A stretch of DNA of 63,285 bases, counting the filler, from Pseudovirgaria hyperparasitica (Eukaryota): the NCBI GenBank assembly GCA_010093815.1. It is 3 parts of 3 records of this genome, joined end to end, with 100 filler letters (N's around TTAATTAATTAA, not from the genome) between each part and the next. Parts side by side here need not be neighbours in the genome. Positions count along the whole stretch, not along the records: positions 23,467 to 44,501 come from ML996584.1; 2 more parts are not named here. One strand, given 5' to 3'. Both the position numbers and the translations under genes were made by a program. The notes beneath the pieces were generated by a model. That model was not told where the DNA came from, ran no database searches, and saw only the letters and a list, made by a program, of their open reading frames with translations. Positions 725 through 51,500 of this stretch are shown in pieces. The first letter of the stretch is position 1, and each line of letters opens with the position of its first letter.

Positions 725-3410
725 CTTTATAACTTATTTAGATAGTTATTCTAAATATCTAGAGATAGATATTATAAAAAATAGAGATAAGAATTTCTTA
801 ATTACTAAGAATTATATTACTAGATAAGAAAACTAGTCTAATAGTAATAAAGTAAAGAGATTCTATTCTAATAATACTAGAGAGTATAAATTATTATTAT
901 ATAAGTCTTATTTTAATAAAAAAGGTATAGAATATACCTATATATATCCTTATAGTCTAGAATAGAACTCTAAAGTAGAGAGAATTAATAGAATATTACT
1001 TAATAAAGTTAGATTATTACTTTATTAAGCTAATTTACCTTATTATTACTAGACTAAAGCTCTATTAGCTATGTATTATCTATATAATAGAATACTATAT
1101 TCTAGTATAGAATATAAAACTCCCTATAAACTTAAATATAGTAAAAAACTAATTATTATATATATAAAAGTATATGGTTCTAGAGTATATAAAAAAGAAT
1201 ATATATCTAAGAATAAGCTAGAGCCTAGAAGTAGTTTATATTATCTTATAAACTATAATAATAATAATTAGTATAAATTACTTAATATTAGTAATAATAC
1301 TACTATATAGGCTAAAGATATTACTATACTAGAGAGTACTTTTTATAATAAAAGTTAAAAACTCTACTTAGACTCTCTAGAATAAGAGTCTATATATAGA
1401 GAACTAAGTAAAGATAAATTAGAAGAAGACGAAAATTACATAGATAATAAGTCTATATATAATTTAAATACTCCTAAAATTACAGCCGAATCGGGTGAAA
1501 ATTATAGTTAGAATTAATTTACGAAAAATAGAGAAAATCAAATTAACCTAGACTCTCTAGAGGGTCTAGAGACTCTAGATAATCTAGATAGTCTATAGAC
1601 TCTATTAATTTAGATTTAGAAGACGAATTAGCTTATACTAATAATAGTAATATTAGTTCTAATGCTATATGTTATTATACTTATAATAGTCTATTTGAAT
1701 TTAGTACTTATAATATATCCTTAGATATTATAGAGCCTAAATCATATAAATAAGCTATAAAAAGTACACATGCTATAGAATGGAAAAATACTACTATTAA
1801 GGAGTATAATAACTTATTAAGTTAAAATACATAGGATTTAGTAGATAAACCTAATGGTTCTACTAATATAATCTCTAGTAGATAGGTATTTAAACTTAAA
1901 TTAAACCTAGATAATACCATTAATAAGTATAAAGCTAGATAGGTAGCTAGAGGTTTTCTATAAAAATATAGAATAGATTATCTAGAAACCTTTACTTATA
2001 CTATAAGACCTATAGTAATTCGTTTATTACTACTTATAGACGGGTTATATAACCTTAAAATACATTAATAGGACTTTAAATTAGCTTTTCCTAATGCTAG
2101 ATTAAAGAAAACTATATATATATACTAGCTAGAGGGGTTTAGAGACTCTAATTACCCTAATAGAGTTAATAAATTAAATAGAGCTTTATATGGACTTAAG
2201 TAATTAGCTAGAGAGTAGTAAGATCTACTTAAGGATATATTAATATTCTTAAAGTTTACTTAAATTATAGCTAAAAATACAGTCTATATTAGAGATAATC
2301 TAATTATTTTAGCCTATATAGACGATATATTAGTTTTTATACCTAATATTAAAGATATAGATAACTTCTATTTAGAGATAACTAAGTACTCTAGATTAGA
2401 TATATCTAATCTAGAGTAAGCTAAATATTATTTAGGAATAGAAATAAAGGGAGATAGAACTAAAGGTTATATTATATTATCTTAATCTTCTTTTATTAAG
2501 AACTTATTAATTAAGTTTAATAAAGAGAATATAAAGCTATCTAAAATACCTTTATCTCTAGGTATTTAATTAGATAAAATCTAATTATAAGCTAAATTAA
2601 AAGATATTAGATAATTTTAAAGGGAAATTAGTTCTCTTATCTATATAACTAGTCTAACTAGATATAACCTAAAATATCTAGTAGGCTATCTAGCTAGATT
2701 TATATCTAATCTAAGTCTAGAATACTTTAAAGCCTTAAATAAGCTATAGTAATATATATTATTTTCTAAGGATTTAGAAATAGAGCTCTATATTAATAGA
2801 GACTCTATTAAATCTAATAATATAATAGCTAAAGGCTATATAGACTTAGATTAGGGGGGGAATATATCTAGAAAAAGTACTACTAGATATATATTCCTTA
2901 TAGGGAATAGCCCTATCTCCTAGAATTTAAAATTATAAAAAACTATAGTACTTAGTTTCTATAAGGCTAAATATATAGCCCTTAAGGAAGTAACTAAGGA
3001 ATTATTATATATTAAGTCTCTTATTACTTAAATTCCTATATTAAATAATATAGAGATTAAGGACTTATATATAGATAATTAATTAGCTATAGAAATTATA
3101 AAGAATCTAGCCTATTATACTAGAACTAAGTATATAGATATTTAATACCATTTTATTAGAGATAATTACCTAAGAAAGGTAATTAATCTAATATATATAA
3201 ATACTAAGAACTAAATAGTAGATAGTCTAACTAAGGTAGTTAACTACTCTATATAGAAGTATTCTATAGACTCTTTTAATTTAATTAATAGAGCTAAAAA
3301 CCTATAAAAATAAAAAAATAGTATAAAAGATATATATATATATATATAGATTAAGGGGGTATATAAGTTTTATATATATAATAACCTTATAATCTATTAT
3401 ATATAATATA
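723..3410 (+). mobile_element. RIP-degenerate Ty1/copia retrotransposon (INT-RT-RNase H, PPT, start of 3' LTR)
   Basis: De-RIP motifs: PEQNxxAERINRTLL (~955-1010), EPKSYKQA (~1733), YKARWVARGF (~1928), YIDD (~2315), GYTDSDWGG (~2834), RTKHIDIQYHFIR (~3122), ADGLTK (~3218). PPT TTAAGGGGG at ~3351. The LTR is split by LINE-2 and appears to resume at 19499-19544. Confidence 0.9.
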
Positions 3411-3570
3411 GAGAGAAATCTAGAACACTCTAAGGGACTAAAACTAGTTAATTTAGGGCGATATAGTAATCTATAGATATTAATTAATAGAGTATACTAA
3501 GTATAATAACTTCTAATATATATATATATATATATATATAGTATATAATATATAATAGTACTAATATATA

Positions 3571-6500
3571 ATAATAATAATAATATTATATAACTAGGTA
3601 GAGTAGTACTCTATAGGCCTATGCCTCCTCTAGTCTAGACTACTATATAAGAAGAAACCCAAGAGGGGAAAACTTCCTTATATCGATAATTACATCTCGT
3701 TAAACCTTTATTTCTTCTTAAGTATATAGCTATAGGGTATACCTATTAGCCTATAGCCTATATTACCGTTATTTTACCCTTAGGTAGCACGTGTAGGTAC
3801 GGAGGTTATTAGTTAAGGGGTTCTTCCGGCATATACCGGGTTTCCTCTAATGTATACCGGGTTTCTTCCGGTATATATTTCCGGGTCTACTAGAATTAGA
3901 GGAGTGGTAGGTATGTAATTATCCACCGGGCGATATTCTTAGGGTACTTATTAAGCCATCGTACGATATCGGAGATTCTTATTATATAGATAAGCTTCTA
4001 CCTTTATATATAAAGATTAGGGTATATTATAAGATAGTAGCGTATTATATCTCTCCGGCTATATATCTTATACTATAGAGACACGTCGGGGACGCCTCTC
4101 TTATAGAGGTAGTATAGAAGTTCTATAGCGCCCGTTCGGGCTTAGAGGAGTATAGATATCTAGGCCTTTATAAGCCCTTTATATATCTATTTACTCGGCT
4201 CCTTCTATAGTTCTTAGATCTACTCTAGATATCTATTCTACTAGAAGGCCTACTAGGCCCGGAGTATCTCTTTCTACTTATCTTAGATCTACAACCATAT
4301 ACTTCGTCCAAGCTCTTAAAGGCTCTATTAGTCTAGAAGGGTATCTAGGTTATCCTTAATCTCTTATACTACTTAGTTTAAGTCTATTTCTATTAGGTAC
4401 TTATACTATAGTTAAGTCCGGCCTATATATAAGAGTACTTAGTAGTATACGCTAACTCACGCGCGTAGCGCGGCGAAGGTATATTCTATATTTTCTATAC
4501 GTTCCTATACTTATTATTTAGTAAAGTATACTACCCTCTATGTCTAGTAGAAGTTATATATACTTATAATATCTATCTCGCGTCGTAGTAGCACCGTGTT
4601 AGTAGCTTTATATACGCCTAATATAAGATAGAGTATATAGTTCTATATGGATTCGAGCTTTATTCGTCTAGTCTATATAAGGGCCGTGTACTAGTACTCG
4701 TGTCCGTACGTAAAGGCGGGTCGTGCTATAGATATATATAGCTAGCGTGCCTTATCCCGGGCGGTTCTCTACGTAGAGGCCGTAATCTAGCGTATAGCGG
4801 CTTCTATCTAGAGGGCCCTAGAAACGGCGTATGCTACCTATGGTCCCTATTTAAGCTTATTATTAATTATAACGCCGAGTGCGCGTATGCTTTATGTCGG
4901 CGGTTTGTCAAAGGCGTCTATTCTAGGGCGTTACTTGCCTTCCCTAGTAGCCTATTTCCTATAGCGGTTAATAAAGTATATAAGTTAGTACTTTTCGGGG
5001 GCGAACTTTACTCTATAGCGCTTTACCTATTAGATGTATCTTCCGTAGTCTTATTCGAGTCGTCTATATGTTTAGCTAGTATTATTATTAATAGCTAGAA
5101 GGTATGTATCGTCTACGTATCCTACTACCTCTATATATTATAATCCCTAGAGGAGGTCTATAGTAAAGAAGATGAAGAGAATCGGGGAGATAGTACTTCC
5201 TTATAGGATGCCGTAAGCCGTCTTCTCGTACTTACTTCGATATCCGGGGATATATATCTAGGTAACTCTTTCGGCGAGGAAGGACTATATAAACCGCGTA
5301 ATCCACGCGGGTATACGCCTCTTCCGTAAGTTATAGATAAGTCTCGTGTGGTTTACTTTATTAAATACGCCGGCCATGTTAAGGGAGAGTAGCGTTACTA
5401 TACGTCCCTACTTCTATATAGTCTAGACGACTTTAAGGATATATTAGATAGTGGTAATTAGGGAGCTTCTAGCCTTCGCCTTCTGGTTTACTAGGAGGAG
5501 GTTATATTCCTATACTACGGCGCTTATCTTCTTCGCGATCATAGTCTCTAGTATCTTTCTAAGATAGAAGAGAAGGGCGATTAGCCTCTATCCTTTCGGG
5601 GAGCTAGGGTTCTTCCCTAGTTTCGGGAGTATAATAGTATAGACGGCCCGGAAGCTTTAGGGGTGGTATCCGTTCTTAATATATGCTTAAAATATATAAC
5701 TAATAAGCGGTAGGGTAGCTAGTATAGTATGTTTAAGGTATCTATTCGGTATCCTATCCGGTCTAGGTGCCTTATTATTCGGGAGTACTTTAATAGTATC
5801 GAGTATATCCTCCTTAGTAACCTCTTAGGGGATATTAATTACGTCTAGATATTTAGTATTATTAATATCTAATAGGTCTACTAGCTCCGGGAGGGGGAAT
5901 ATAACTTTATATAAGATCTCCGTCTTCTCCGGGCTTATAGAGTATATTCTCTCTTAGTATATTAGGGGAGGTATTAGTAGCGGCGGTATCGGCGCGTCTA
6001 CACCCTTAGCCTACTTTACTATATACTATAGCCCTACGGCTTACCGTGTATATTTATCGGTAATTATACGCTATTATTTTCGTCGTTTATTACGGAGGGC
6101 CCTATCACGATATCGTACTACTTCCTTCTACTCTTCCCACGCCTTAGTCGTCCGGATATAGTATACACGTGTATATAGTCTACGGGCGTCTCTTCTATAC
6201 TCTCGTATTTAAGGTATACCCCTCGCTTCTAGGGGTCTATACGTTCAGTATAGCACATATTTATCTCTTATAGCTTAATATACTTAAAGGAGGACTTACA
6301 CGGCCTTATCTATGGCTAGGCCGTTAGATACGTCGACTATAGAGGGGTCTAGAATTACCGATTCTAGGTCCTCTAGGTATTTATCCTAATTAGTATCCTT
6401 CTATAGCTATTTCCTATATTATTCGTTAAGAGTAGAGACGTCTATTACGGTTTCCATATATTCGTGGTCGGAGTCCGTCTATATCCGGCTCGGGCGGTAG

Positions 6501-22500: not shown

Positions 22501-23366
22501 ATTCCTAGTATATAGTAGAAATCCTTCTAAAATTTAGATATTATCTATAGACCTCTATCTAAAACTATACTATTAAGTATACTATAGAGCCGAACTACGT
22601 TATAGAGTAGTATATCTATAAGATCTAGTACTTAGATTATCTTTCTTATAGAGATATAGTATAATATCTTTATAAATCTATCTAGAACTATAAGTAGACT
22701 ATTATAAATATACCTAGAATACTTACTTAGGGGTAGATCTATAATAAAATCTATTAATAATTCCTTCTATACCTTCTTTAGTATAGGTAATAGCCTTAAT
22801 TTACTATATAGAAAGTATCTATATACTTTTATATACTAGTAAACGTTATATATTTTTATATAGTCCTTTATGTATTTATAAAGACCCAGCTAGTTATATA
22901 TTCTTTAGATTAAATTAACTATTCTTATAATACTAAAGTATCCTACTAACGTATAATTATACTATTCCCTTAAAATATTAATTTATAAGCCGTCTTCTAG
23001 TATATAGAGTTAGTCTTAAAAGTAGATTATATCTAATTATTATTTCTATCTTAATAACTACGGCGGATCTATAGCGCTTTCTTTTATACTTATAACTTTC
23101 TTTACTAATATATTAGAATTCTAGGTAGATTTAATTAAGTCTTTAAGGGTTTTCTTAGTTTCTTAGATATTTATTTAGATTACTTAATACCCGCTCTAAT
23201 TCCTATAGAGAATCGCCAAAAGTATCCTAGCTTCTAGTATTCTATTAGATAACTAGTCTTATAGTATCTAAAGTATAGTATAGTCTAAATTATACTAACT
23301 ATCTATATTATTCTATAATAATTTCTTATAATCTTTATACCGCGATAGAGGATTAGCTTTATTCTC
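19545..23366 (-). mobile_element. Ty3/gypsy family A, 3' half (3' LTR 19545-19772, accessory region, chromodomain, integrase), cut by the contig end
   Basis: Reverse complement of about 58600-62420, more heavily RIP-mutated than that copy. Confidence 0.92.
20258..21239 (+). pseudogene. Second copy of the gypsy-A antisense spliced accessory gene
   Basis: Colinear with 61707-60726 (minus strand), from the ATA(ATG)GTTTCC start to the stop. Confidence 0.7.
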
Positions 23367-23466
23367 NNNNNNNNNNNNNNNNNNNNNNNNNNNNNNNNNN
23401 NNNNNNNNNNTTAATTAATTAANNNNNNNNNNNNNNNNNNNNNNNNNNNNNNNNNNNNNNNNNNNN
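23367..23466. other. Artificial contig linker (N run + TTAATTAATTAA + N run)
   Basis: Exactly 100 nt with a six-frame stop cassette; repeated at 44502-44601. Confidence 0.97.
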
Positions 23467-23561
23467 CCTAACCCTAACCCTAACCCTAACCCTAACCCTA
23501 ACCCTAACCCTAACCCTAACCCTAACCCTAACCCTAACCCTAACCCTAACCCTAACCCTAA
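23467..23561 (+). repeat. Telomere (CCCTAA)n, about 16 units, at the start of contig 2
   Basis: Perfect CCCTAA array at a contig terminus, in the orientation of a left chromosome end. Confidence 0.97.
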
Positions 23562-24088
23562 ATCGCGACCGTTTATTCGCTTATAAAAAAGGATCACTTA
23601 TACGCGGTTATATACTGCGGTACGGCTTCGGCCCTTTAGCGCCTAGGACGTAGCCCGGCCATCGGCGTCGGTGCTATTTAGGCACCGCTGCCCGAGGCAT
23701 GCGCGCGCCGCGCTATAGTAGCGCTCGGTATTTTAAACGTGCCGATGCCGATAGGGTAGGCCCTAGTACGTTACCGTACGGCCCGTGGTGTGTGCTTTGC
23801 GCGTAAGCCTACATCCTTAGACGGAAAAATGTGACATGCCAGCATTCATAGCGATTCTCGGCCAGAACGTGACTAGGTGACTATAGAATAATTTAGAATG
23901 ACTACGCATTCCGATCGGAGGTCGGTATTATAACCGACCGACACTTTCACCTATAAAAGAATAATAAATCTTAGTCCCTAATGAGCCTTTAAGGCGAAAG
24001 GCATCTGTCGGTTTACACCTAGCTATCTAGGACTCCTGTTACTCATCACTTTTCCTCGACGATTTCTTCCTGCTTAAAGTAACCCTAA
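23562..24088 (+). mobile_element. Telomere-attached segment ending in TAACCCTAA; putative 3' end of a telomere-targeting (Penelope-like) retroelement
   Basis: Bounded by the telomere and by TAACCCTAA (24080-24088). Contains a hammerhead fold. Less RIP-affected than its neighbours. Confidence 0.5.
23959..24044 (+). ncRNA. Type I hammerhead ribozyme (RIP-damaged)
   Basis: Stem I AGTCC (23973-77)/GGACT (24030-34). Core CTAATGA (23978-84; CUGAUGA with one TG>TA change). Stem II GCCT/AGGC. GAAA (23996-99). Stem III AGGCA/TATCT. CUA cleavage triplet ending at 24029. Distal stem I GAATAATA/TGTTACTC. Confidence 0.78.
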
Positions 24089-24438
24089 TACGGCCGCCTT
24101 ACCAAAAGTAATATATAGCTCTACTACTATTATATAGTACGATATAATAACCGTAAATCTAAGACCTAACCGAGCCCGGTTATTATTATATAAAACACTA
24201 AGCCGGTCTCTAAGATAACCCTAGAGAATAAGGGTATGTTATAGACTTCGGCTTTACCTCGTCTCTAGTATTATATAACGGAGCCGGGACGGATAGAGAC
24301 TAGTATAGGGGTATCACGTGACCTCGCTTAAGACTATACTTAAGCTATAACCTATACGAGCTACCCCTACTCTCTCTAAGTTAAATTATAATATATCTTA
24401 ATTACTATTATAGTAATACCTTAGTTATATCTATTATA
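24088..24438 (+). mobile_element. Truncated 3' end of gypsy family C (150 nt of 3' region + LTR 24237-24438)
   Basis: Reverse complement of 36408-36757; homology stops abruptly at the TAACCCTAA junction. Confidence 0.9.
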
Positions 24439-27400
24439 CTAAAACCGATTTAGTAATAGATCTTATAGGATATTATAAGGTTATTACTATACCTTAAACT
24501 TAAAACTATAAGGATTATATTATAGATCTCTCTATTAATTAATATAGTAAGATATAAGGACTAACTTATATAAATAACCTAAAGTTACTTACTATACCTA
24601 TAGTAGAATAGAATATATAGTACCTAAGTACCGTTTAGAGAAACTACCAAGTACTAATATAACTAATTAATTAGTTATATATTATAAGTACTAGTAGCTA
24701 GAATATATCACGCCTAACTATCTAGTATAGAATATAAAAAACTAATAATCTATAAGAAACCCTTATAACTTATAGGCGCGACTATAATAGAGGGGTAACT
24801 AGTTAAATAGTATATTAAACTATAGGCTAGACCTATTAAGGTCCCTTATAGATAATACTAGACTATAATACTTAATAGTAGTTTAGCTACTAATATTATA
24901 TTAATCTAATAAGTATAAGAACTTAACGTTAATATCTAAGCTCTAATAGATACTATATTCTATAGTATTAACGGTCCTATTAAGTTATACGATATCTATA
25001 CTATTAAATATAGCGTCTAGAATAGTGGAGGGAAATAGAAACCCTATTACTCTATCTTTATCGTGGTAGATAGCCCCTTTAATATAATTCTAGGTATACT
25101 ATAGCTTAAAAAATATAACCTAAAACTAGACTTTATTAAGAAAATAGCTAACTAGTATATAAACCTACCTTAATAGGAACTAGTATAGCTTATTAATAAT
25201 AAATAGTTCTAGAAAGATTATAAGAAGGCGATCTCTACTATCTATATACTCTTACTTATCTAAAATAGTAAGCTTAGTATTAAAATAGACGAAAACCTAC
25301 TATACTAGTATAAAATATACTAATATATTATATTAGTGATTAATTCCTCTAAATTACCTTAATATTAATCTACTAACCTTACTATTAATCTCGAAGATAG
25401 CTAATAACCTCTATATAGATCTATTTACCCTCTTTTAGAATCTAAATTATAAGTTCTTTAGAAATATATTAAAAAGAACCTTATATAAGAATAGATTAGA
25501 TCTAGTATATCTCTAGTCGGAGCTCTAATCCTCTTTATAAAGAAGAAGGATAGAAGCCTCTATCTATATATTAACTACTATAGCCTAAATAATATTATAC
25601 AAAAGAACCGTTACCTACTACCTCTTATCTCTAAGTCTATTAATAGACTAGGATATATAAAGACCTTTACTAAGCTTAATCTACGTAATATCTACTATCG
25701 CCTTTATATTAAGGAGGGCGATAAATAGAAAACGGCCTTTAGGACCCGTTATAGATACTTTAAGTATATAGTAGTTCCTTTTAGACTAACTAACGCGCTA
25801 GGTACCTTCTAAGTATATATTAATAATATACTAGTAGGGCTACTTAATATAATATATATTATATACCTAGATAATATTCTTATCTTCTTAGATAATAAGA
25901 AGAAGTATATCTAGTATATATATATAGTTCTAGATAGACTAGAAAAGTATAAGCTATATATTAAGCTATCTAAATACGAGTTCTATTAGGACTATATTAA
26001 CTTTCTTAGCTTTATTATTACTAATTAAGGTATAACTATAGAGAGAGATAGAGTTACTACTATTATAGACTAGCCTAAACTAAAATCTATTTAAGATATA
26101 CGTGTCTTTATTAGCTTCGCTAACTACTATTAAAAGTTTATTAAATACTTCTCCCGTTTAGCTATACCTTTTAATATATATACTACTACTACTAATTCGT
26201 CTATTACGGTCCATGGTAGATAGAAATAGTATAATATTAAATTATAGTCTATTAAATTAATAGAGATTAAAAGAGCGTTCTTCGAGAAGATTAAAGAGAT
26301 ATTTATAACTACTCTACTACTAGTATACTTTAATCTAACTAAATCTATTCACGTTAAAACTAATATATTAGAATTTATAATCTTAGGTATACTCTTCTAG
26401 CCTAGACTAACTAAGTCTAAAAAGATCTAGTAGTATCTAGTTATATTCTTCTCGTGTAAGATAGCCGATATTAAGACTAGATATACTATTTATAACTAAG
26501 AGCTACTAGTAATAGTAGAGTTATTTAAGTAGTAGCGATATTATCTTAAAGGTACTATATATAATATTAAGTTACTAACTAATTACTATAACTTAAAGGG
26601 GTTTATAAGTATAATAGTTTTAAATTATTAATAGATTTAATAGGCTAAGTAGCTTATAAATTTCTACTTTATAATCTACTATTAACCTAGAAGTATAAAT
26701 CTAGCTAATAGAATATTAAGAAGACCTAACTATAAAGAAGGCGCCTAGAATTATAGTAGCTATAGGGTTCTAGAGTAGCTATAGACCTAACTCTTAAGGA
26801 CGAGGTTAGATAATATATTATCTAATAATTAGTAAGATACTAACGCTAATACTAGTAATTAAATTTATAAGACTAAAGCTAGTAACTAAAGACGTAGTAC
26901 CAAAGTCTCTAGCGAGCTATTTATTAGCGCTATTAGAGAGGGCGATAGTACCTAGTATATATATTAAGTAGACCTCGCCTAGTTAATCGTAGATCTATAG
27001 AAAATAGATCTAATAGTTTTAAAGTTATATAAAATATAGTAAAATAGATTATTACGGACCGAAGTAGACTATAAGTAGACCTTTATAGACGGCTTACTTT
27101 ACTATAATAGAAAGTATTATATACTAATAGGTAATACATGATTTACTATAGTTAGCTAATACTATAACACTAACCTAGTAGGGTATTTCGGGTATATATA
27201 TACCCTAAGCTTAATTTATTAGTACTACTTTTAGGAAGATATACCTAAGTACGTTAAAGAATAGATAGCTACTTATCTAATTTATTAAAGAACGAAGGCA
27301 TCTAGGTATAAGCTATATAGAAATTTATAGCCTCTACTAGTCCCCCTCTTTATATAGAAAGATATTACTATAGATTTTATAGTTAACTTACCTCTAAGTA

Positions 27401-29039
27401 AGATACTTAGAATAAGTTATAATTTAATTCTTATTATCGTAGATAGACTTATAAAGATATCTAGATATATTCTAGTATAGAAGATAATTATATCGAAAGA
27501 GCTAGCATAAGTATTCTAGAATAAGATTATTAAGGTCTATAATATACTAAAAAGGATTATTATAGACCGAGGGAGTATATTTATATCTAAATTCTAGACG
27601 TCGTTCTATAAAATAGCTAGTATAAATAGAAATATATCTATAGTATTCTATCTATAAATAGATAGTTAGATAGAGCAATAGAACTAGATACTTAAGGCCT
27701 ACCTTTACGTATTCTATAATTCTAAATAAGATAACTAGGCCTCTCTACTAAGTATAGCGGAATTTATATATAATAATAGTTATTATAGTATAATAGGTAT
27801 TATACCCTTCTAGGCGAACCTAGGACGTAGTCTAAGAATAGGTTTTAAACCTTATACGGTCTAATTCAATTAAATAATAGATATTAATATCTATATATAG
27901 AAACTAGCGATTAAAATCTTTAAAACTATATATAATTATTATATAATAATCTAGTAAGTAAATAAGTTATATATAAAGTACTATAATAGATTAGCTAAAG
28001 ATTAAATATATAAGGAGGGAGATAAAGTTCTTCTTAATGTTTATAATATATAAACGTTATAAGTAAATAAAAAGCTTAATTATAAAATAGCTAGTCCATT
28101 CCGAATTAAACGTTATATTAGTATAAGAGTCTATAAGCTCGACCTAGAAAGTAATATAAAAATCTATAACGTGTTCCACGTCTTACTACTTAAAAGGTTT
28201 TAATCTAATATATATAATCGTATAAACGTATAATTATACTCTATTATACTCTAAGAGAGACTAGACGTATACGAAGTAGACTATATTATTAAATATAGAA
28301 TTAATGAGAGCGGTATTTAGAAATATTAAATCTATTAGAAGAACTATACTAAGGATAAAGATACCTAGAAACTAGTAGTATATATCTTAAGTACCGCGAT
28401 ATCTATATATAAATAGAGGTTATAGAATAATATGTTAGTATTATAAATCTAGTACTATTAGAGTCGCTGTAAAAAGAAGAAGAATACCATAGAGAATAAA
28501 GTACTAAATTATAAATCTTAGACGTATATTAGGAAAACTCTATAAGGTAGCCCTATAATTCAAGTAATATATAGTTACTAGACGCGAAGAAAATATAAAT
28601 AATCGTTATAGACACGCGACGTAATATATTATAATAGAATAATATAGAAAAGTCTAGAATAGACTAATATAGACTATTATACACGAGAAAAATATAGAAC
28701 TAAGAAACTAAAAAGGTACCCTACTACGGAATTAAACTTATAATATATAATATAAAAAGTTAGAGTACCTAAACTAATAACTACTAGGCTACTAGTTCGG
28801 GTACTCTAATAAAATTTAGAGAGATAAACTAATTTATATACGACGTCTATACTTAGATAACTTAAGGAAAATTAGAATCTAGAATTTGATAGTTATAGAA
28901 TAAACGAGAGTATATATAATATTATTAAGTTAAGAATTAAATTACTAGAAAACTAGTAGATAGATATCTAAATAGTCTAAAAAGGACTAAAATAGATAGA
29001 AACTAGGTAAATAGAGCTAGAATATACTATAAAAACCAC

Positions 29040-32000
29040 CTATATAGAAAAGCTAGAGCTATAGAGCTACTCCTCTATCTTATTATTACTTTTAGAGTAT
29101 AGTAAATAAACTAGCTAAGTAATAGAGTAGTATAGATTAGATATCTTATCCTCTAGAGTAGCTACTTAATTAACTAGAGTCTAGTAAGAGAAGGACTACG
29201 CGCTAGAATAGAGTAACTAGATCTAAAGTTAGCTAATATAATCTAGAATAATCTAAAATAGAATATATACTCTCTTATAAGATAACTTAGAGGGAGAACT
29301 AGTAGATCTCTTATAAGATCTATTAGTAGTATAAGGTAGACGGAAAGAGATACCCTAAATCTCTTCTATAGCCTTAGTAGTTAAAACTAACTCCCTAGAG
29401 TAGGTAGTCTAGATACTAGGGATCTTATAATAACTAAAAAATATAAGCTAAGGCTAGAAGTAACTAATAGTTTCTAAACTTATACTTTAATAATCTCTAG
29501 AAAGAGCTTATAGCGCTCTCTAAATTCTTTATATATAGAGGGTAAGTAACTACTAAGACTACTAAGGGTCTTATAGACGCGAAGGCTATTATATATATTC
29601 TATATATAAATAGAAACCTAAAAACGTATTAGTATAGATAACTTTAGATTATCTAAGACTAAAATAGTCTAATAGACTTATCTAAAGATAAGCCTTACTA
29701 AAGATAGTATAATAATAATAATAATATTAGTAAACTAGGTAGAGTACCACTCTATAGGTGCATGCCTCCTCTAGTCTAAGCTACTATATAAGAAGAAACC
29801 TACGAATAGGAAAAACTCCCTTATATCCATAACTACGCTCTGTCTATCCTCTCGTTCTTTATATATATATAGCCCTAGGGGCTACCCATAGGCCTATAGC
29901 CTATGTTATAATGGTTTGCCCTTAGGTAGCACGTGTAGATGCGGAGATTATTAGTTAAGGGCTGCCCTTAACTAATAATCGCGGTTCTCCCGGGGTTCTT
30001 CCGACGTATACCGGGGTTCTTCCGGCATATATTAGGCTTCTTCTAGCATATATACGCGGGTCTACTAGAACTAGGGGAGAGGAAGGTATGCGAGCATCTA
30101 TCGGGCGACGTCCTTAGGGTACTTATTAAGCCATCGCGTAATGTCGGAGGTCCTCGTTATACGGACGAGGGCTTGTCTTAGGGTATAGAGGCTAGAGCAC
30201 GTCGCGAGGTAGTAGCGTATTATGCCTCTCCGGCCGTAGTCCTCGTACTAGGGAGATACATCTAGGACGCCTCTCTAGTAGAGGTAATGTAGGAGACCTA
30301 TGGCGCCTGTTCGGGCTTAGAGGAGTATAGATGCTTAGGCCTTCGTTAGCCCTTTATATATCTATTTACTCGGTTCCTTCTAAGGCCCTCGGATCTATTC
30401 TAGATATCTATCCTATTAGGAGGCCCACTAGGCTTTAAGTACCTTCCTCTATTTATTCTAGATTCACGACCGCATGACGCGGCTAAGCTCCTTAGAGCTC
30501 TATTAGCTCGGGACGGCATCTAGGTTATTTCGAACCTCCTACACGGTCTAGCTTAAGTCCGCCTCTATATGGTATTTATATTATACTCGAGTTTATCCTA
30601 TAGTAGGGAGGGCCTAGTAATGCGCGCGGATACGTATACATAGTACGGCGAAGGTATATACCCTATCTCCTCCACGTTCTTATACTTATTATTTAGTAAA
30701 GTATATAAGTCTCTATATCTAGTAGAAGTCCTATATACTCGTTACGTTTATCTCGCGTCGGAGGAGCGTCGTGTTAGTAGCTTTATATACGCCGGAGATA
30801 AGGCGGAGTATACGGTTTTATATAGACTTAAGCTTTGCCCGCCAAGCTTGTATAAGGGCCGTGTACTAGTACTCGTGTCCGTATATAAAGGCTAGGCGTG
30901 CTAGGGAGACGTATAGCTGTCTCGCCTTATCCCGGGCTATTCCCCACGTGGATACCGTAATCCGGTATATAGTAGTTTCTATCTAGAGGGCTCTGGAGAC
31001 GGCGTGTGCCACCTATAGTCTCTATTTTAGCTTATTATCGATTATGACGCCGAGTGCGCGTATGCTCTATGCTAGTAGTTCTATAAAGGCGTCGATTTAG
31101 GGGCGACGTGCCCCCTCCCTAGTAGCCTATCCTCTATAGCAGTTAATAAAGTATATAAGCTAGTATTTTTTAGGTGCGAATTTTGCTCCGTGGCGCTTTA
31201 CCTACTAGACGCATTTCTCGTGGTCTCGTTCGAGTCGTATGCATGTTCTACTAGTACTACTATCGACCGCGAGGAGGTATGTATCGTCCGCGTATCCGAC
31301 TACCTCTATGTATTCTATTCTCTAAAGGAGGTCTACTATAAAGAAGAGGAAGAGGATCGGGGAGATGGTACTCCCTTACGGGATGCCGTATACCGTCTCC
31401 TTATATTCGCTTCGGTATCCGGGGATATATATTTAAGTAGTCCTTTACGCGAGGAAGGACTATATAAATCATGTAATCTACTTAGGTATTCGCCTTATCC
31501 GGAGGTTGTGGATAAGTCTTATATGGTTTACCTTATTAAACGCCTCTACTATGTCTAGGGAGAGTAGCGTAACGACTCGTCCTTATTTCTATGTAGTCTA
31601 GATAACCTCGAGAATATGTTAAATAGCTGTGATTAGGGAGCTTCCTATCTTCGCCTTCTGGTTTGCTAGGAGAAGGCCGTGTACCTATACTACTATACTT
31701 ATCTTCTTAGTAATCGTGGCTTCTAGTACCTTACCAAGGTAGGAGAGGAGGGCGATTGGCCTCCATCCCTTCGGCGTGTTTAGGCTCTTCCCTAGTTTTA
31801 GGAGTATAACCGTGTATACGGTTCGGAAGCTCTATAGGTGGTATCCTATACGGGCGTACGCTCGGAATATATGGCCTATAATCGGTAAGGTCGCCTATAT
31901 AGTCCTCTTAAGGCATCGATTCGGAATTCTATCTAGCCCGGGCGCTTTATCGTTCGGGAGTGTCTTAATGGCGCCAAGTATATCGTCGTCCGTGATTTCC

Positions 32001-35683: not shown

Positions 35684-36769
35684 CTATATATATATATTAG
35701 CTAGAGATCTAAGAATAAAATATTTATCCCTTAAGAGTAATTAGAAAAGCTAAATTAGTAACTATAATAACGCGAATAGATTATATAAGACTAGTTCTAA
35801 TAAGAATAGACTACTCTAAACCCGAATAGACCTAAACTAGAGAAGATAGTATAGAAATTAATAACTTACCTTAAGAGTAAGGTAGATATACTAAAGAAAA
35901 AAATTTAGAATAAGAGAACTAAATATAAGCTTAGTTAATATAGTAGTTATATAACTATAGAGCTATCTCTAAGGTAGTAGCTAGAAAGTAAGAGATAAGC
36001 GTATATATAAGTTAATAAAAGTAAACTAGAGACTTAAGTTTACTAAGGTAAAGGCTATTAATAATATTATAAAGATTTAATTAGATATATATATAAATAT
36101 AATACTTATAAGATTATAGATTTATATATAGTTAAGTACTTTAGAGCGAAGTATAAAAAGAAGAAGAATATTATTAGAATAGATACTAGAATAGACTTAA
36201 CTAGACTACTATAGTCTAGTATAGTCCTATAATAGATAGACCTAGGTTAAGTTAGCTAGATTAAGCGAAACTACTATATAAGTAGACTATATATACTTAA
36301 TTCCTACTCTTTAGGAATTAACCTTATTATAAGAGTAGACTATCCTTTTAAATATATTTCTAAATCCTTCTATAATCTATTAGACTACTATCTTATATCT
36401 ATATTCCTATAATAGATGTGACTAAGGTGTTACTATAATAGTAATTAGAATATATTATAATTTAACTTAGAGAGAGTAGGGGTGGCTCGTATAGGTTATA
36501 GCTTAAGTATAGTCTTAAGCGAGATCACGTGATACCCCTATACTAGTCTCTATCCGTCCCGGCTCCGTTATATAACGCTAGAGATAAGGTAAAGCCGAAG
36601 TCCATAATATACTCTTATTCTCTAGGGTTATCTTAGGGACCGGCTTAGTATTTCATATAATAATAACCGGCTCGGTTAGGTCTTAGGTTTACGGTCTTTA
36701 TATCGTACTATATAATAGTAGTAGGGCTATATATTACGTCCGGTAAGATGGCCGTATCCTATAGTCGTG

Positions 36770-39000: not shown

Positions 39001-42000
39001 TAGAAGAATAACCTTTTTATGTCTTAAGGAGGGTGTCGGTTTATTATTAGGTTACTTAGGTACTTAGCGTTTAGCGTTTAGTCTTTATAGAATCTCTACT
39101 CTTATATCGGGTTATTAGGGCCGCTATAGGCCCGTAATAGTAGATTAATATCTTTATTTAGGGATACGCTAAAGTCGTAGGCCGTTATATAATCGCGCGC
39201 TACTATACCGGGCCTTAAACCTATCTAGTGCCTCGGTATTCTCCATGTCCTTAAGTGGTACCTATATTAGCTATAGCCAGCCCTTCTATTTTATAAGTAC
39301 TTGCCTCTTATTTCGCCTATATGCGTTTTTCGCCTAAAGGATATTCTTAACCTCGTATTTAGTAACGTCCTCGTCGGCTTCGTTAAGTTCGAGTACCGGG
39401 CCTAGACGAGTATCTAGCTACTCCTAGCTAGGTAGGGGGTCCTCTACGGCGCGCTCGACTAGGCTAATATAGACCATCTTATAAAGGTCCCCGGAGAGGT
39501 CGAGGGTTACTATTAGGGGGGTAGATTAGGTAAGAACCCTATACTTAGCCTATAGCTAGTCGAGTTTCCGGCTTAGGCGATTAGTCTTTACGTTTCGGAG
39601 TAAGAACCATACTATATTACTAATCTTAAAGCGTTTAGCTAGGCGGCGTAACCGGTTAGCCGAGTCCTAGAAATGTTACTCGGTCTAGGCGATAGCCGTC
39701 TACGCTAGGGTAGTACCGTCGTAGAGGTACTTAAGGAAGTTTATAGCCCGGCCTTTCGCCGAGGTCGTAGAGGTATTAGAGAGTGGCCGTCGCGGTAATA
39801 GTTTAATATAGTATCTATTTAGAAGTAGATTCGGTGCTATACCGGTTACTAACGAGGTGCGGTTATTTAGGGCGAGCTAGCATGCTAGTAGGTACTCCGG
39901 CTAATTAGTTTACTCGAAGGTTACTATAACGCGAAGTACCGCCTAGACCTTCTAGTTTACTCGCTCTATACTACCGTCGGTCTACGGATAGTAGACCGTA
40001 GAGAGGTCCTAGTACACGTCCGTTATAGAGTAAAGGGTTATCTAGAACTACCCTAGCTAGTCCGAGCCCCGGTCGGTAATAATAGACTATAGAAACCCCT
40101 AGAAACGCTACTATATATCGCGGAATCGCGCCGCGTAGTCCTTAGCCACTATAGAGGTTATCGCCTCTAGCTAGATGAATTTTAAGAGCCGATCCGTAAT
40201 AACGAGTAGATACCGGGGCCGTAACGGGTCCGATTAGGGAAGGTCGGTTATAAAGTCTATAGAAATCTAGGACTAGAAACGGTCTAGTATCGGAAGCGGC
40301 TAGAGGAGCCTAGGGGCCTTACGCCGATTTATATAAGCTCCGTAGTAGTTATAGTTCCGTATAAATCGCCGGATATTAGCCTATATATACTTCTAGTAGT
40401 ATTCCCGCCGGATAGCTACATATATCTTATTCTTACTAGGGTAGCCCACGAGGGGGGAAGCGTAGGACCTCTAGATAATAGTTATTATAAGCGGTTCCCA
40501 TTCGGGTACCTAGATAACTCCCCGCCATATAAGTATCCCGTATACTAATATAGTATAGTCCGTAACCTATTTAGTCGTAAGCACCTCCGGTAGAAAGAGG
40601 TATACCCCGTCTACTACGGCCGTATAGCGGATCTAATACGCCGGGACGGACTAAGCGGCTTAGTCCTAAAGCTCCTAGAGGTAGAGATCGGTAAAGATAC
40701 TTTATCCCTATAGAAGGCGATCCTTCCCGGAGTAGATACTTATAGATACTATTTAGATAGCTCGCGAGGCTATAAGCGACCCCTATAGAAGGGACTTCTT
40801 AGACGAGTCCTAGTTACGGCGGCTAAGGGCGTCCGGGCGAGCCGCCTAGGATCCCGGCCGGTATACTAGGTCGTAGTTAAAGAGTATAAGCTAGTTAGAC
40901 TATCGCTACTACCGCGGGACGAGAAGATAAGACTTAGTAAAGTACTTAAGGTTCTTATAGTCTATATAGATCGTGAAAGGGTAGTAAACGCTCCGGAGCT
41001 CGGGTTCCTATATCTAGAGGTACTAAACTACGGTAAGGAGCTCCTTATCATAGATTATATAGTTCCGTTAGGCGGCCGTAAGGGCCGCAGAGTAGTAGGC
41101 TATCGGGTGCTAAATACCCCGAACCCTCTAGAATAGGCACCCACCCGTCGCGTGGCTAGAGTAATCCGCCTTAACTATTATATCGCGCGTCTCGTCCTAG
41201 GATTAGAGAATAGGTCCTATAATAAAAGTATTCTTAAGCTTAGTAAACGCGCGGTCCTCGGTTAGGCCCTAGTAGAAGGCCGCCCCGGCCCTAGTAAGGG
41301 CGTAGAGCGGGGCCGCTACGGTGGAGAAGTCGGGAAGAAAGTTACGGTAGAAGTTTATAAATCTAATAAATCGCTAGACGCCCCGGACCGTAGTCGGGGG
41401 CTTCTAGTCCTAGATCGCGGTAATTTTCTCCGGGTTAGGGCGGATTAATTTACTAGCGGTAATAACGTACCCTAGGTACCGGACTTCCTTAGTAGCGAAG
41501 CGGCACTTAGTAAGGTTATAGTAAAGGTCCGCTTTAGTAAGGAGAGATAGAATAGTCTTTACGGCGGCCTAGTGGTCCTCTAGCGTACCCGGGGTATAGA
41601 TAAGGATATCGTTAAGATACGCTATATAGGTTACCCCTAGGACCCCACTTAGTACCCCATTAATATAGCGCTAGAAGGAGGCTAGAGCACTAGAGAGACT
41701 AAACGGAAGCACGGTCTATTTAAAGAGGCCGAACCGGGTACGGAAAGCCGTCTTATGTTCGTCGCCGGCGGCCACCCGTAGTTTATAGAATGCCACCCGA
41801 ATATCGACCTTACTAAACCATAACGCGTTACTAATAGTATATAGGGTTTCGCGTATTAGAGGAAGCGGGTATCAATCCTACTCCGTAATACCGTTAAGGG
41901 CTCTATAGTTAATATATAGCCGCTATTTCCCTCCCGGCTTAGGGACGAGTAATACTAGCGCCCTAGCCGTAGAGGAGCTAGCCCGTATCTAACCCTTATC

Positions 42001-44406
42001 TATAAGATCCGTAAGCTAGCGGCGTAGCTCTACTAGCTACTCCCGAGATATAGCGTAGAGGGGTCCCTAAGGGAGGTTTACTAGGGTCCCCGCCGGGGTA
42101 GACTTAATATAGATATAGTAGTTAGTGCTCCTCTAGTAGGGGGGTAGCGCTAACGCCTTCGCCTTATCGAAGAGGTCGCGGTAGGCGTGTAGCTTTAATA
42201 GGAGCGGGCGCCTATCCTCCGTAAGCTCGGACGCGTCCTAGTCGGGTATTAGAGGTGGCGGGGGGAGTATAAGCTATAGAAGGCGGGTGACATCGCGGAT
42301 GCTAGTAGCGACCACCCGTCCACGGCGATAAGCCGTCTCTAGAGCCCCTATAATACGACCCTTCTCGGTAAGCACCCGAATGCGCGTTAGGCGTATATAG
42401 ATGTTTATATCCTAGGCTATAAGGCCGTAGGCGCGGTAGAGCGTAATCTCGTCTACCCGTATATTAATAACGGCGCCGGCCTAGTAGAGCCACGGGCTCC
42501 TAAGAATAAGATCCCGGTCTAGCCCGGGCACCACGTAGGCGGAGAGGCGCTATCTCTATCTAGTAATATCGTACCATATAGTAACGACTTCCGTAATCTC
42601 CGGTCCCGACGCTCCGTTAGCGGTAAGAGCTACTCGACGACGTAGGACTAAGATACGCGACTTAGCTACGTCCCCCGTAAGGGATAGGCTAACTACCGCG
42701 AAATACTCGCACCCTATATCTACTAAGGCGTCTATATACTTCCTATCCTAGAGGAATAGCGATATAACGGGTGGCGGCCCGTCTATAACCCGAGCGGGTA
42801 CGCTATCCTCCGGGTCGGAGCCGTAATCTTAGTCGCCTATAGCTTTATTCCCTACTAAATATTATAACGTCCCCCAACCCGGGCTATAGTAAGGGACTAT
42901 ACTTCCCCCGCCTCGGAGTCGGAATTAGTATTATTCTAGGCCGGGGCCGCGACCTTAAGCGCCTGTATATTAACGGCGTTTAGGTAGCCCCGTTATTAGT
43001 AGCTAGCCTAGCTACACCGGGTATACACGCCCGCTATATAGCGCTCCTAGAATAAATCCTTCGGAATCCACGAAGGAGGCTCTTTCTTCTTAACCCCGTT
43101 CTTACTCTTCGCCGCTAGTAAGGTAGCTCGCTCCTTACCCTTTATCTTAACGGCCTTAATAGTAACCGCTAACATCGTCGTATCGCCGTCCTTATCCTTA
43201 CCCGGCTTGCTTTAGGGCGCCGTGTTTTACCTAGTACGGAGCCGGAATAACTCTATATCTATGCCGATATCTCTAAGGCGGCCTACTACGGCCTCGTATT
43301 AGTCCGGGAGGCCCTAGTTTAGGGCTACTACCCGGGTCTTCTAGTTAAGGCCGTCCCGGAGCCGTATAAGCTTCTAGTCGTCGGCCTAGTATATTCCCCT
43401 AGCCTCCTAGAGGGCGGTATAGAACTAGACGAAGTAATCTATAAACAGCTCCTTAGCCTTTTATACGATTATATTTAGCCGTTAAAGGGCCCGCTCTTTA
43501 GTATATATATCTCCGAACTAGAACTTAAGGTAGTCTAGGAACGCGTATAGGTTCTAGTTACCGTTTAGCCCCCTAGTAGAATATACCACGCTAACCCCCT
43601 TCTATACCTTAGGCGCTAGGTTAGCCTAGATAAGGGCTATCTAGTCCCTATAGGTGCTAATAAACTCGGCGTCCCGGGTAATCTTATACTATATTATAAC
43701 GGACCACGTATAGAAGAGAGTCTTAGACCCGTTATACGGATCGCCGAGGGGGAGAGACTTCCGTTTTATAGGCCGGTCAAGTATAATATACGGGGCCGAT
43801 AGTAGTAAAGTAGGGGCGTGTATAGATAGGGCCGGGTCGGGCCTATATAGGCGCTAAGGTATAGCTAAGGAGGGGTCGGGCTAGGGTAGGGACGAATCCC
43901 TATAGGTTAACGTGGTAGGAGTACGGCTATATACTTCGACCGTAACTAGGCGGGCGTTAATATACTATAGCGCCGTATAGACGCTCTACTTAATATTAGA
44001 TATACGAGACTCGCTTACCGCTTAGACGGCCGTAATAGACTTATATACGGCCTATATTTCGTCTTAGAAGCTAAGGAAGGAGTTAGAGAGTTACCGTATT
44101 AGATTAGAGTCTTACGGGTTAAGACTATCTTATACTATAAGACCACGTATAGGAAGAGGTTAATAAAGTTAAATTAATATAATGGATGTGACTAAGGTGT
44201 TACTATAATAGTAATTAGAATATATTATAATTTAACTTAGAGAGAGTAGGGGTAGCTCGTATAGGTTATAGCTTAAGTATAGTCTTAAGCGAGGTCACGT
44301 GATACCCCTATACTAGTCTCTATCCGTCCTAGCTCTATTATATAACGCTAGAGACAAGGTAAAGCCAAAGTCTATAACAATTCCTTATATAAGTAGATTA
44401 TAGTAG

Positions 44407-44501: not shown

Positions 44502-44601
44502 NNNNNNNNNNNNNNNNNNNNNNNNNNNNNNNNNNNNNNNNNNNNTTAATTAATTAANNNNNNNNNNNNNNNNNNNNNNNNNNNNNNNNNNNNNNNNNNN
44601 N
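44502..44601. other. Artificial contig linker
   Basis: 100 nt of N with central TTAATTAATTAA. Confidence 0.97.
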
Positions 44602-48599: not shown

Positions 48600-51500
48600 A
48601 AGTAATTCTTTAAAGATCTAGGTACTTATACTATAGTTTATATCTTACTACCGCTATATAACCCTATAGATCTTACTAGCTTTAATAATAAGCTTAAACT
48701 AGAGAGCGATCCAATTAATTTATAGTATATAGAAGTTACTACTCCCTATATATAATATAGTATATTAAGTAGGCCGGATACTTAGCTCTAGATCTCTATT
48801 CTCTACCGCGAGTTATTTAATAAGAAATTTAACTATCTAATATATATCGCTATAAGTATCTTATAAGACAAATAGGCGGATCTTCTATTATTCTAATTCT
48901 AAGACGTTACTATTAGATATATCTAGCTCTTAGATATTACTCGGGTGCTCTTAGCTATTATCTATTCTATTAATATAAAAGGATTCTATTATATAGAACT
49001 AGGTAGTCGTAGGTACCTTAAAGTAGATTTAAAGAATTATAATAATAACGTATACCGCTTTAAAGTCCTTTAATTTCGCCTAGGCGTCCTTCTATTTAAA
49101 TGCCTCGCTCTAAAAGTCTTTAATAAGGTTAGGTATTCTTCTAAAGTATCTAAGGTACTAATTATATTAATGGATACGGTTACTAATATAACTCGAGCTC
49201 GTTCTAAACATTTTATTTGGACTAGCGACACTAGTTTAAGTATAATTAGATTATCCCTTACTACGCTCATAGGGTTTACGGATATTCCGGCTTTAGTTAG
49301 TGTATAAATCTATAATAAGCTTACTAAGTAACGCATTAATACATGCTAGAAACTAATCTACTATACTATATAAGCTTCTAGAGACGGTAGCGCCGATAAC
49401 TACGCTACTTAGAATACATTTAATATAATAGTCCTTAATGTTATTATAGACTTAGTATCTATATCTCTAATATATAGGTCCCCTAACCCTAACGACGAGA
49501 TTCTAGATTATAGTATAGAGCCTTAGAATACCCTTATTACTCTTTCTAAATTATCTATATCTCTAGATAATAATAAGGATATAAATATAGAATATAGTTA
49601 CAATATTATTAGCAACAAAGGTTCTATTACTAGCCCTATCACTAATATATATATACTTCTAATATTATCTAAAGTCTACTCTAGTATTCTATCCCCTTTA
49701 CTACCCTCTATATAGAATCTAATACTTAGTAATAACTATCTAAATCTTTAACCTATCGACTATAACTACTATATTAAAGATTATAAAAGATTCTATAATC
49801 TCTAGAATATTATATATTTAGAACTATCTCTCTAATAATAGTATATCTATATATAGATGATAGATATACTTAGGGCTTAGTTTCTACTTTACGGCTATAG
49901 AGGAGCTAGGAAGAGCTATTTATAGCTTCGTCTACTACTAGCTATACTTCTAATTAATAAAATAAATAGTACTTCTATTATCGCTTATACTACTAAGGTA
50001 GTTATTCTATCTAGTAATATAATAGCGCACCTCCCTATACTAGGTTCTACCTAGATATATAGAATATATATATATATATTATTATCGGCCTAACTAACGA
50101 AACCTATAACGACGCTATAAGAAAAGTATATAAATATATAAGTAATATATTTACTTACTATAAGTCTCTAAAGATACTAGTTATTCTTTAAAGATACCTC
50201 GAAGCCGTTAATTAAGAGGTTTTCTTTACTATAGCTAGACTATCTTATTACGGTAACCCTCTTATCGGGCTAACCTAGAATAATATAATAGGCGGTACTA
50301 TCCTCGCGTAAGCTTAGGCTAACTATAGTAAATAACTATTAGAATATAGTACGGATCCCCGTGCTCGTCTATAGAAACTATATACTAGTTATATTATACT
50401 TAAGGTTATTAGACTTATTAAATCTTAATACTAATATAAATAGATCTCTAAGAATTTCGAGAAAGAAATGGCTTAGTTATTATATACTATCTATAAATAT
50501 TTTACTTATAATAAGGACATGCCTAAGGAGGAGTATAATAGAATAAACAAGCTATACCTCGCTACCTAGGACCTAGTTACTATCTACGCCTAGATTTATA
50601 TAGGGACCCTATATATTATAAATATCGCTAAGGTAGCCTATAATATATATCCGATTTTAGTTGTAATAGAAGAGACTATATATATCCTTAAAAGTAATAT
50701 ACTTAGGATTATTATTAATTATACTACTATAGAATAGTAACTAATATTTATTTATATCGGCAACCTATACTAGCTCGACACCTACTAGCGTAATAGTACT
50801 AATATATAGGCCGCGAACTAGAGGATCTCCTTTATAAAGTACTAGATATAATATAGTTTTCTAACTACTCGCCTTACCGAGTTAGAACGCTTAGTTTCTA
50901 AAATAATAAATATTATATTACTAATTACTTACTTAGGCGAGCTAACGACCTCACTCTATATAATAAATAATATTAATATACTACTCGTAGAGACCGTTTA
51001 ATAAATATTTAGAATCTACGGCCATTAATACGTCGTATATACTAATATTAATAGAGATTATACGTATATAGTAAATAACTTAATATATAATATAGACTTA
51101 TTATGTTTTACTTAGTAAATTATTACTAAGCTCTTCTATTATAGTATTATACTTAATCGCGTACTCTATATTTCTATATATACTACCTAACGTAATCTAT
51201 TTAAAGAGATAGTTAGGAACTCGCTTCTAACTATACTTACCATAGCGGATAAAGCTCGATTTAATACCCTATCTAAGCTAGTATAGAAGCTTGTCTAATA
51301 GCGTTTATAGAACGGTTCTTAGGGTTATAATAATAATATAGTTCTTATTAACCCGGTCTAAACTAATTACTTTAGCTTTCTCTCGGAAGTAAACTATAAC
51401 GTTATTACTATTACGCGCGCTAAATAGATAATAGTTATTATTACTAACTTTATATCTCTTAAGAGGTAGAAAGTCCTAGACGGCGTACTCGGTGAGATAT

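Follow-up and report, generated by a model that had tools for sequence, protein, structure and literature searches.

On balance, we read the hammerhead-like motif that begins 412 nt inside a chromosome end of Pseudovirgaria hyperparasitica as a relic: it is probably a dead hammerhead, carried by the 3' fragment of a 5'-truncated, telomere-attached, endonuclease-less (EN-less) Penelope-like element (PLE) of the Coprina/Athena type. What favours a real hammerhead relic is the coincidence of the motif with its telomere context, and not the string alone. We infer its membership in the Penelope-like family, the mechanism of its attachment and its past catalytic activity. Two RIP-type changes in helix III, at positions 24025 and 24020, are documented; the loss of the conserved G5 of the core is probably not the result of independent RIP in each copy.

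The motif and its position at the chromosome end

The window, i.e., the whole stretch of DNA that was analysed (63,285 nucleotides, filler included), consists of three contigs with N44-TTAATTAATTAA-N44 spacers between them (23367-23466 and 44502-44601). Any feature read across one of these joints would be an artefact. The middle contig (contig B, 23467-44501) is present whole, and it contains the motif at 23973-24034 on the + strand, which is the strand running away from the telomere. A reading made from the sequence alone (the sequence-only reading) had described a type I hammerhead disguised by RIP at this place; the string and its positions are as it had claimed, and we confirmed the letters on the + strand. 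The parts of the motif are the following:

23959-23966, + strand: 5' strand of the distal stem I extension, GAATAATA, pairing with 24037-24044
23973-23977, + strand: 5' strand of stem I, AGTCC (AGUCC), pairing with GGACT at 24030-24034
23978-23984, + strand: core strand CTAATGA (CUAAUGA), with A23980 in the conserved G5 place
23985-23995, + strand: helix II hairpin GCCT-tta-AGGC, in which G10.1-C11.1 is kept
23996-23998, + strand: core strand GAA (G12 A13 A14)
23999-24028, + strand: helix III, with 5 bp, a 1x1 loop, three more pairs and a 12-nt loop
24029, + strand: A in the H17 place, with cleavage predicted from its position in the motif between 24029 and 24030
24030-24034, + strand: 3' strand of stem I, GGACT (GGACU)
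24037-24044, + strand: 3' strand of the distal stem I extension, TGTTACTC

The order of helices and core strands is that of a type I hammerhead, with the complete three-helix arrangement (stem I 5' strand, CUGANGA box, helix II hairpin, GAA, helix III hairpin, H17, stem I 3' strand) and stems of 5, 4 and 5 bp. The full conserved core (C3 U4 G5 A6 N7 G8 A9, G12 A13 A14, A15.1-U16.1, H17) is not complete: 10 of the 11 conserved places are matched, the exception being the A at 23980 in the G5 place. The pairs G10.1-C11.1 and A15.1-U16.1 are both kept. In helix III, AGGCA (23999-24003) pairs with TATCT (24024-24028), beginning with A15.1-U16.1 and interrupted by a single C.A mismatch at 24002/24025, and the 1x1 loop is followed by CTG/TAG at 24005-07/24020-22. 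The bulged distal extension of stem I that had been described is indeed present, GAATAATA and TGTTACTC forming 7 of 8 pairs beyond a 6x2 internal loop, and it is AT-rich and weak. With A in the G5 place, the earlier assessment that this copy is probably inactive stands.

A perfect 7-bp inverted repeat, GGTCGGT-attata-ACCGACC, is located at 23920-23939, about 35 nt upstream of the motif and within the higher-copy unit listed below. Its letters at 23924, 23927, 23928, 23931 and 23935 vary among other copies.

The surroundings of the motif are organised as follows:

23472-23561, + strand: (CCCTAA)15 telomere cap that opens the second contig, a chromosome end
23562-24079, + strand: block of non-coding sequence (526 nt) that separates the telomere cap from a telomere-like 9-mer
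23850-24088, + strand: higher-copy unit of 239 nt (a possible pseudo-LTR) that holds the hammerhead-like motif, delimited by a step in depth and by other flanks on both sides in other copies
24080-24088, + strand: the 9-mer TAACCCTAA, 1.5 units of the reverse-complement telomere repeat, which closes the block on its 3' side
24089-24911, + strand: flank outside the element, the start of a heavily RIP-mutated LTR-type repeat (Ty3/Gypsy) with homology to 36757-35924

Neither strand of the block holds an open reading frame. The 9-mer TAACCCTAA is the same repeat, in the same sense, as the (CCCTAA)15 cap. Telomere repeats are therefore found both distal and proximal to the block, whose 3' end points towards the centromere, as is expected of EN-deficient PLEs. 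As for a hammerhead beside reverse-complement telomere repeats at the 3' end, the order is right, but the core is imperfect and a spacer of 45 nt lies between the end of stem I and TAACCCTAA.

The sequence on the far side of the 9-mer is of another kind. The homology of the LTR-type repeat to 36757-35924 (minus strand) starts exactly at 24088/24089, and a Gypsy-type domain follows downstream (SH3_Tf2-1 at 28063-28200, E 1.3e-9). The heavily RIP-mutated Ty3/Gypsy element to which it belongs (24089-29900) thus adjoins the telomere-like 9-mer without a gap. Two inverted copies of its LTR-type repeat are present in the same 21-kb contig, at 36363-36757 and 44174-44388. A direct 3' LTR of this element, sought for a target-site duplication in telomere repeats, was not found in contig B, which holds inverted copies only.

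Two further places in the window deserve mention. In the third contig, an interstitial telomere repeat CCCTAACCCTAA lies within CCCCTAACCCTAACG at 49479-49494, and TAGTCCTTAATG, about 40 nt upstream of it, resembles stem I and the core start of the candidate. We considered this region as a relative of the unit and rejected it, as RIP-tolerant local alignments were no better than those of shuffles or of AT-rich pieces of the window (fractions of shuffles scoring at least as high as observed, 0.52 and 0.14; real-sequence controls, 0.70). The other place is CCCTAACCC at 41432-41440, which is probably there by chance. It lies inside a coding remnant at 41413-41871 (minus strand), where two stop-free pieces give weak RVT_1 matches (E 6.6e-4 and 3.1e-3) in a region that is GC-richer and RIP-marked.

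Chance expectation, predicted folds and Rfam

The alternative that survives best is a chance look-alike. According to this explanation, which is possible although we consider it rather unlikely, the block is an ordinary subtelomeric repeat that was spread between chromosome ends by recombination and was never a ribozyme, the A at 23980 being the original letter. We estimated how often such a motif is expected by chance, using two descriptors that were both drawn up after the candidate had been seen and that cover type I only. The tight descriptor requires stems of 5, 4 and 5 bp with at most one mismatch in helix III, at most one mismatch in the CUGANGA box and loops of 3-25 nt. The loose descriptor accepts stems of 4, 3 and 4 bp, loops of up to 40 nt and at most one mismatch over 11 core places.

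The motif at 23973 is the sole match of either descriptor in the whole window. The tight descriptor gave 6 matches in 1500 simulated windows (0.004 per window), which argues against a look-alike, and the loose one gave 59 in 300 (about 0.2 per window), which, as part of a large scan, is what a look-alike would need. For the string alone chance is therefore borderline, and a large scan will meet similar strings by chance. The expectation is far smaller when the context is included: for the 526-nt telomere-flanked block and the one fitting strand, it is 2e-5 with the tight descriptor (3 matches in 80 Mb) and 6e-4 with the loose one (96 matches in 80 Mb). The motif and its telomere context together exceed chance. 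Moreover, a published architecture (see below) recurs here in the strand of the motif, the cap and the telomere-like 9-mer at the 3' edge, and this also speaks against a look-alike.

Fold energies are ordinary, and in this respect the motif behaves as a look-alike would: the z-score is +0.33 for 23959-24044, and for the 62-nt core it is -0.20 with the letters of the window and -0.58 with G at 24025. In the centroid fold of 23959-24044, a 6-bp hairpin GCCUUU/AAAGGC competes with helix II. With the letters of the window as they stand, helix III is lost in the predicted fold, and for the commonest variant among the other copies the hammerhead fold is not the favoured prediction. Placing G at both 24025 and 24041 makes the hammerhead junction itself the minimum-energy fold of 23959-24044 (-16.0 kcal/mol). 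This repaired copy counts against a look-alike and, together with the confirmed order and stems, bears out the earlier description of a real type I hammerhead-like three-way junction.

The Rfam hammerhead families, one of which is Hammerhead_1 (RF00163), have the same order of helices and core strands as the motif. None of them matched the whole window at the gathering score, and on the native sequence none reached E<=10, either on 401 nt or on 96 nt; the Rfam search that had been proposed along with the original claim was thus negative for the native sequence, as it would be for a look-alike. Weak matches to mir-2002, PtaRNA1 and other families (E 0.8-10) were taken as chance, those to mir-2002 and PtaRNA1 falling on the inverted repeat at 23920-23939.

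Finally, a chance look-alike would also agree with the results for coding sequence. No Penelope-type reverse transcriptase or coding remnant was found in the block, and no Penelope-type reverse transcriptase among the 81 of 82 stop-free contig B pieces (45 aa or longer) that were scanned, where the search gave only weak RVT_1 and RT_RNaseH_2 matches and the Gypsy-type SH3_Tf2-1. A 5'-truncated PLE copy need not have a reverse transcriptase.

Other copies of the unit and the letter in the G5 place

A BLAST search of 23000-25500 against the window did not reveal a second copy of 23467-24087, and a 34-nt motif pattern allowing up to 3 mismatches found only itself in the window and gave 0 matches in metagenome contigs. 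Other copies were obtained from contigs of four public runs, which were placed on 23563-24400 at 80% likeness; what we compared are their difference tables, not an alignment. There were no RNA runs among the public runs listed as containing the stretch.

The summed contig depth over 23563-23842 is 340 in X1 and 506 in X2, and over 23843-24094 it rises to about 1040-2318 and 1500-3595, respectively. In other copies, loose ends with other flanks occur at 23850 and at 24087/24088. One X3 copy continues past 24088 with the telomere-like CCTAACCC..., and a 3340-nt X2 contig (record 9) extends 2920 nt further to the left than the telomere junction in the window. A fixed telomere-complement 3' edge, a variable left extent and an abundant terminal unit would fit a 5'-truncating retroelement with pseudo-LTRs.

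The same unit could instead be a true hammerhead relic of another carrier, either a non-autonomous repeat (retrozyme-like, a solo pseudo-LTR) or a fragment in the tail of another telomere-targeting retroelement. That the 239-nt unit has its own edges, other flanks on both sides and greater depth than its left neighbour would agree with such an origin, as would the fact that no reverse transcriptase is linked to the unit in the window. Against it, there is a single hammerhead-like site, with no tandem or circular-RNA signature, and a Penelope-like layout better accounts for the strand and for the fixed, telomere-like 3' edge. We consider another carrier improbable, and much more so than a chance look-alike.

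The great majority of the differences listed in X1 are transitions (A>G 29, C>T 28, G>A 27 and T>C 15, versus 12 transversions), and such an excess is what RIP among the copies would give. Two of them concern deviations that the sequence-only reading had attributed to RIP. At 24025, where the window has A, the main X1 variant, the only X3 contig and 5 of 5 X2 contigs carry G, and with this letter helix III regains a C-G pair. At 24020, where the window has T, the commonest variant has C, which restores CAG and a G-C pair of distal helix III. Thus, in both cases the attribution to RIP is borne out, and it counts against a look-alike that at these places the letters of the other copies repair the stems rather than scatter.

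Two further changes are compatible with pairing, namely A>G at 24041 in most other copies (U-A to U.G in distal stem I) and a change at 24003 in helix III. The commonest variant also carries two transversions that break pairs, 23992 A>T, which breaks the closing pair of helix II, and 24000 G>T, which breaks the second pair of helix III. Among the pair changes listed, then, the one at 24025 restores a pair, those at 24003, 24020 and 24041 are compatible with pairing, those at 23992 and 24000 break a pair, and none is two-sided; the stem covariation that had been looked for in other copies is therefore not seen as both-sided compensatory changes among the differences listed. Compared with the window, the commonest variant has 0 differences in the 13 core and 10 stem I letters and 7 in the remaining 39 motif letters, which may be a weak signal that core and stem I were spared.

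The A at both 24025 and 24041 in the window is shared by only one X1 contig (depth 293.7), and all X2 and X3 contigs have G. These two letters could distinguish strains, belong to a minor copy or result from chromosome ends so alike that the assembly collapsed them.

The letter at 23980 behaves differently from those at 24025 and 24020. All three deviations stand in TpG/CpA contexts, and all three had been explained by RIP, an explanation that holds for the two in helix III and fails for the one in the core. No A>G change at 23980 is among the differences listed for the four X1 contigs and the four full X2 contigs (two further X2 contigs are partial and reach only to 23973). The other copies had been expected to keep CUGAUGA and, as far as its G5 is concerned, they lack it too among the differences listed, so that this part of the claim fails by the refuting condition given with it; A at 23980 in all visible copies is also what a chance look-alike predicts.

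Several details bear on whether a G would have been noticed. No contig covering 23980 is missing, because the contig depths add up to the bin totals. The X2 contig of record 14 has only two differences, both away from 23980. Records 6 and 15 start at 23955, so that 23980 is 26 letters from the contig end, and a difference there should have shown, because differences as near as 21 letters are listed. Four contigs end at 23984, 30 letters after 23955, and we read this common end as a shared k-1 word. A rare copy with G at 23980 could exist, and record 4 of X1 (depth 293.7) could hide one.

The block has a moderate level of RIP, with a (CpA+TpG)/(ApC+GpT) ratio of 0.64 versus 0.08-0.26 in the flanking repeats, and all visible copies keep the RIP-prone TG at 23982-83. 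Independent RIP at 23980 in every copy is therefore unlikely. An A that was already present in the common ancestor, as part of a dead sequence that then spread between chromosome ends, or a place that never had G, would fit these letters better.

We also considered, as the least probable of the explanations and a very unlikely one, that the form with A5 was the working state of the family, i.e., a hammerhead fold without catalysis or with a non-standard core that presents a telomere-complementary tail. In its favour are the sharing of A23980 by the visible copies while the adjacent TG stays intact, the lack of differences in the 23 core and stem I letters and, in the available parts of two papers, the statements that the fold is said to expose the adjacent repeats (PMC6431247) and that PLEs without canonical hammerheads proliferate well (PMC8557442). 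If true, a ribozyme fold would have been reused as a priming scaffold at the chromosome overhang. Against it, the core of natural hammerheads is exceptionally conserved and changes in it are usually considered to abolish function (PMC3088659, the available part of which gives no G5 variant), the commonest variant has broken pairs in helices II and III and a fold that is not favoured, and the copies are RIP-mutated and look dead.

Proposed origin and comparison with known systems

The reading that we prefer, a 5'-truncated Penelope-like relic, draws on what is described for active elements. In the available parts of PMC6431247 and PMC8557442, EN-less PLEs (Athena, Coprina) attach to G-rich telomere overhangs. 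The hammerhead at their 3' end leads into short reverse-complement telomere repeats, and in most copies telomere repeats truncate the 5' side. In the published model for such elements, the RNA of the element would end in the hammerhead fold and then in a few reverse-complement telomere repeats. Where a chromosome end is exposed, these repeats would anneal to its G-rich overhang, which would prime reverse transcription of the element RNA; an early stop of copying would often produce a 5'-truncated copy, and telomerase would cap the new chromosome end afterwards. If the element were active, its ribozyme would process long or tandem transcripts by cutting them after A24029. The one encoded here would not work, since the conserved G5 is A in all copies seen and the RIP-type G>A change at 24025 opens helix III.

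The order of the locus matches this model: the (CCCTAA)15 cap is followed by the 526-nt 3' fragment with the fold, the 45-nt spacer and TAACCCTAA, and then by older chromosome sequence (the Gypsy LTR). Two further points weigh against a relic. The sequence may never have had G5, and the spacer of 45 nt differs from the papers, in which the repeats lie "immediately downstream".

If the reading holds, the locus is one more trace of EN-less Penelope-like elements colonising the chromosome ends of RIP-active ascomycetes (compare the account in the available part of PMC13159263). Such relics would be recognisable by their layout of hammerhead and telomere repeats after the coding part has gone, which helps the annotation of subtelomeres. 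It would not add a new mechanism, as the motif is dead and the kind of element, a telomere-attached PLE with a hammerhead, is already described.

Among the known systems, the Athena elements and Terminons of bdelloid rotifers are, in the parts of PMC6431247 and PMC8557442 at hand, alike in that copies are 5'-truncated by telomere repeats. They belong to another kingdom and have another telomere repeat, and their repeats come directly after the hammerhead instead of after 45 nt as here.

A second system comprises the hammerheads of fungal telomere-associated PLEs. According to the accessible portion of PMC4209133, they are of type I, with a large helix III and no recognisable tertiary contacts between helices I and II, and its supplement describes 5'-truncated PLEs that retain only the 3' hammerhead. 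The motif described here, compared by description, is likewise of type I and telomeric, lies near a 3' end, and has a large helix III and no recognisable helix I/II contacts. It differs in the A at G5 in the visible copies, in its mismatched helix III and in having no linked reverse transcriptase, and its host is a RIP-mutating fungus with decayed copies, unlike those of PMC4209133 as excerpted.

The third system is Coprina. In a partial text of PMC13159263 its elements occupy 13 chromosome ends of an ascomycete, flanked on either side by telomere repeats; they have terminal direct repeats, and their ORFs point towards the centromere. The elements of Coprina-1_Alen in Ascochyta lentis are about 4.5 kb long, nearly identical and transcribed, and they encode ORF1 and RT-Thumb, whereas the locus analysed here, likened to them by description, has only 526 non-coding, RIP-marked bases. 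The two share the position at an ascomycete chromosome end, flanking telomere repeats on either side and an orientation that leads away from the telomere, and the locus may also share their terminal direct repeats, a few hundred bases long.
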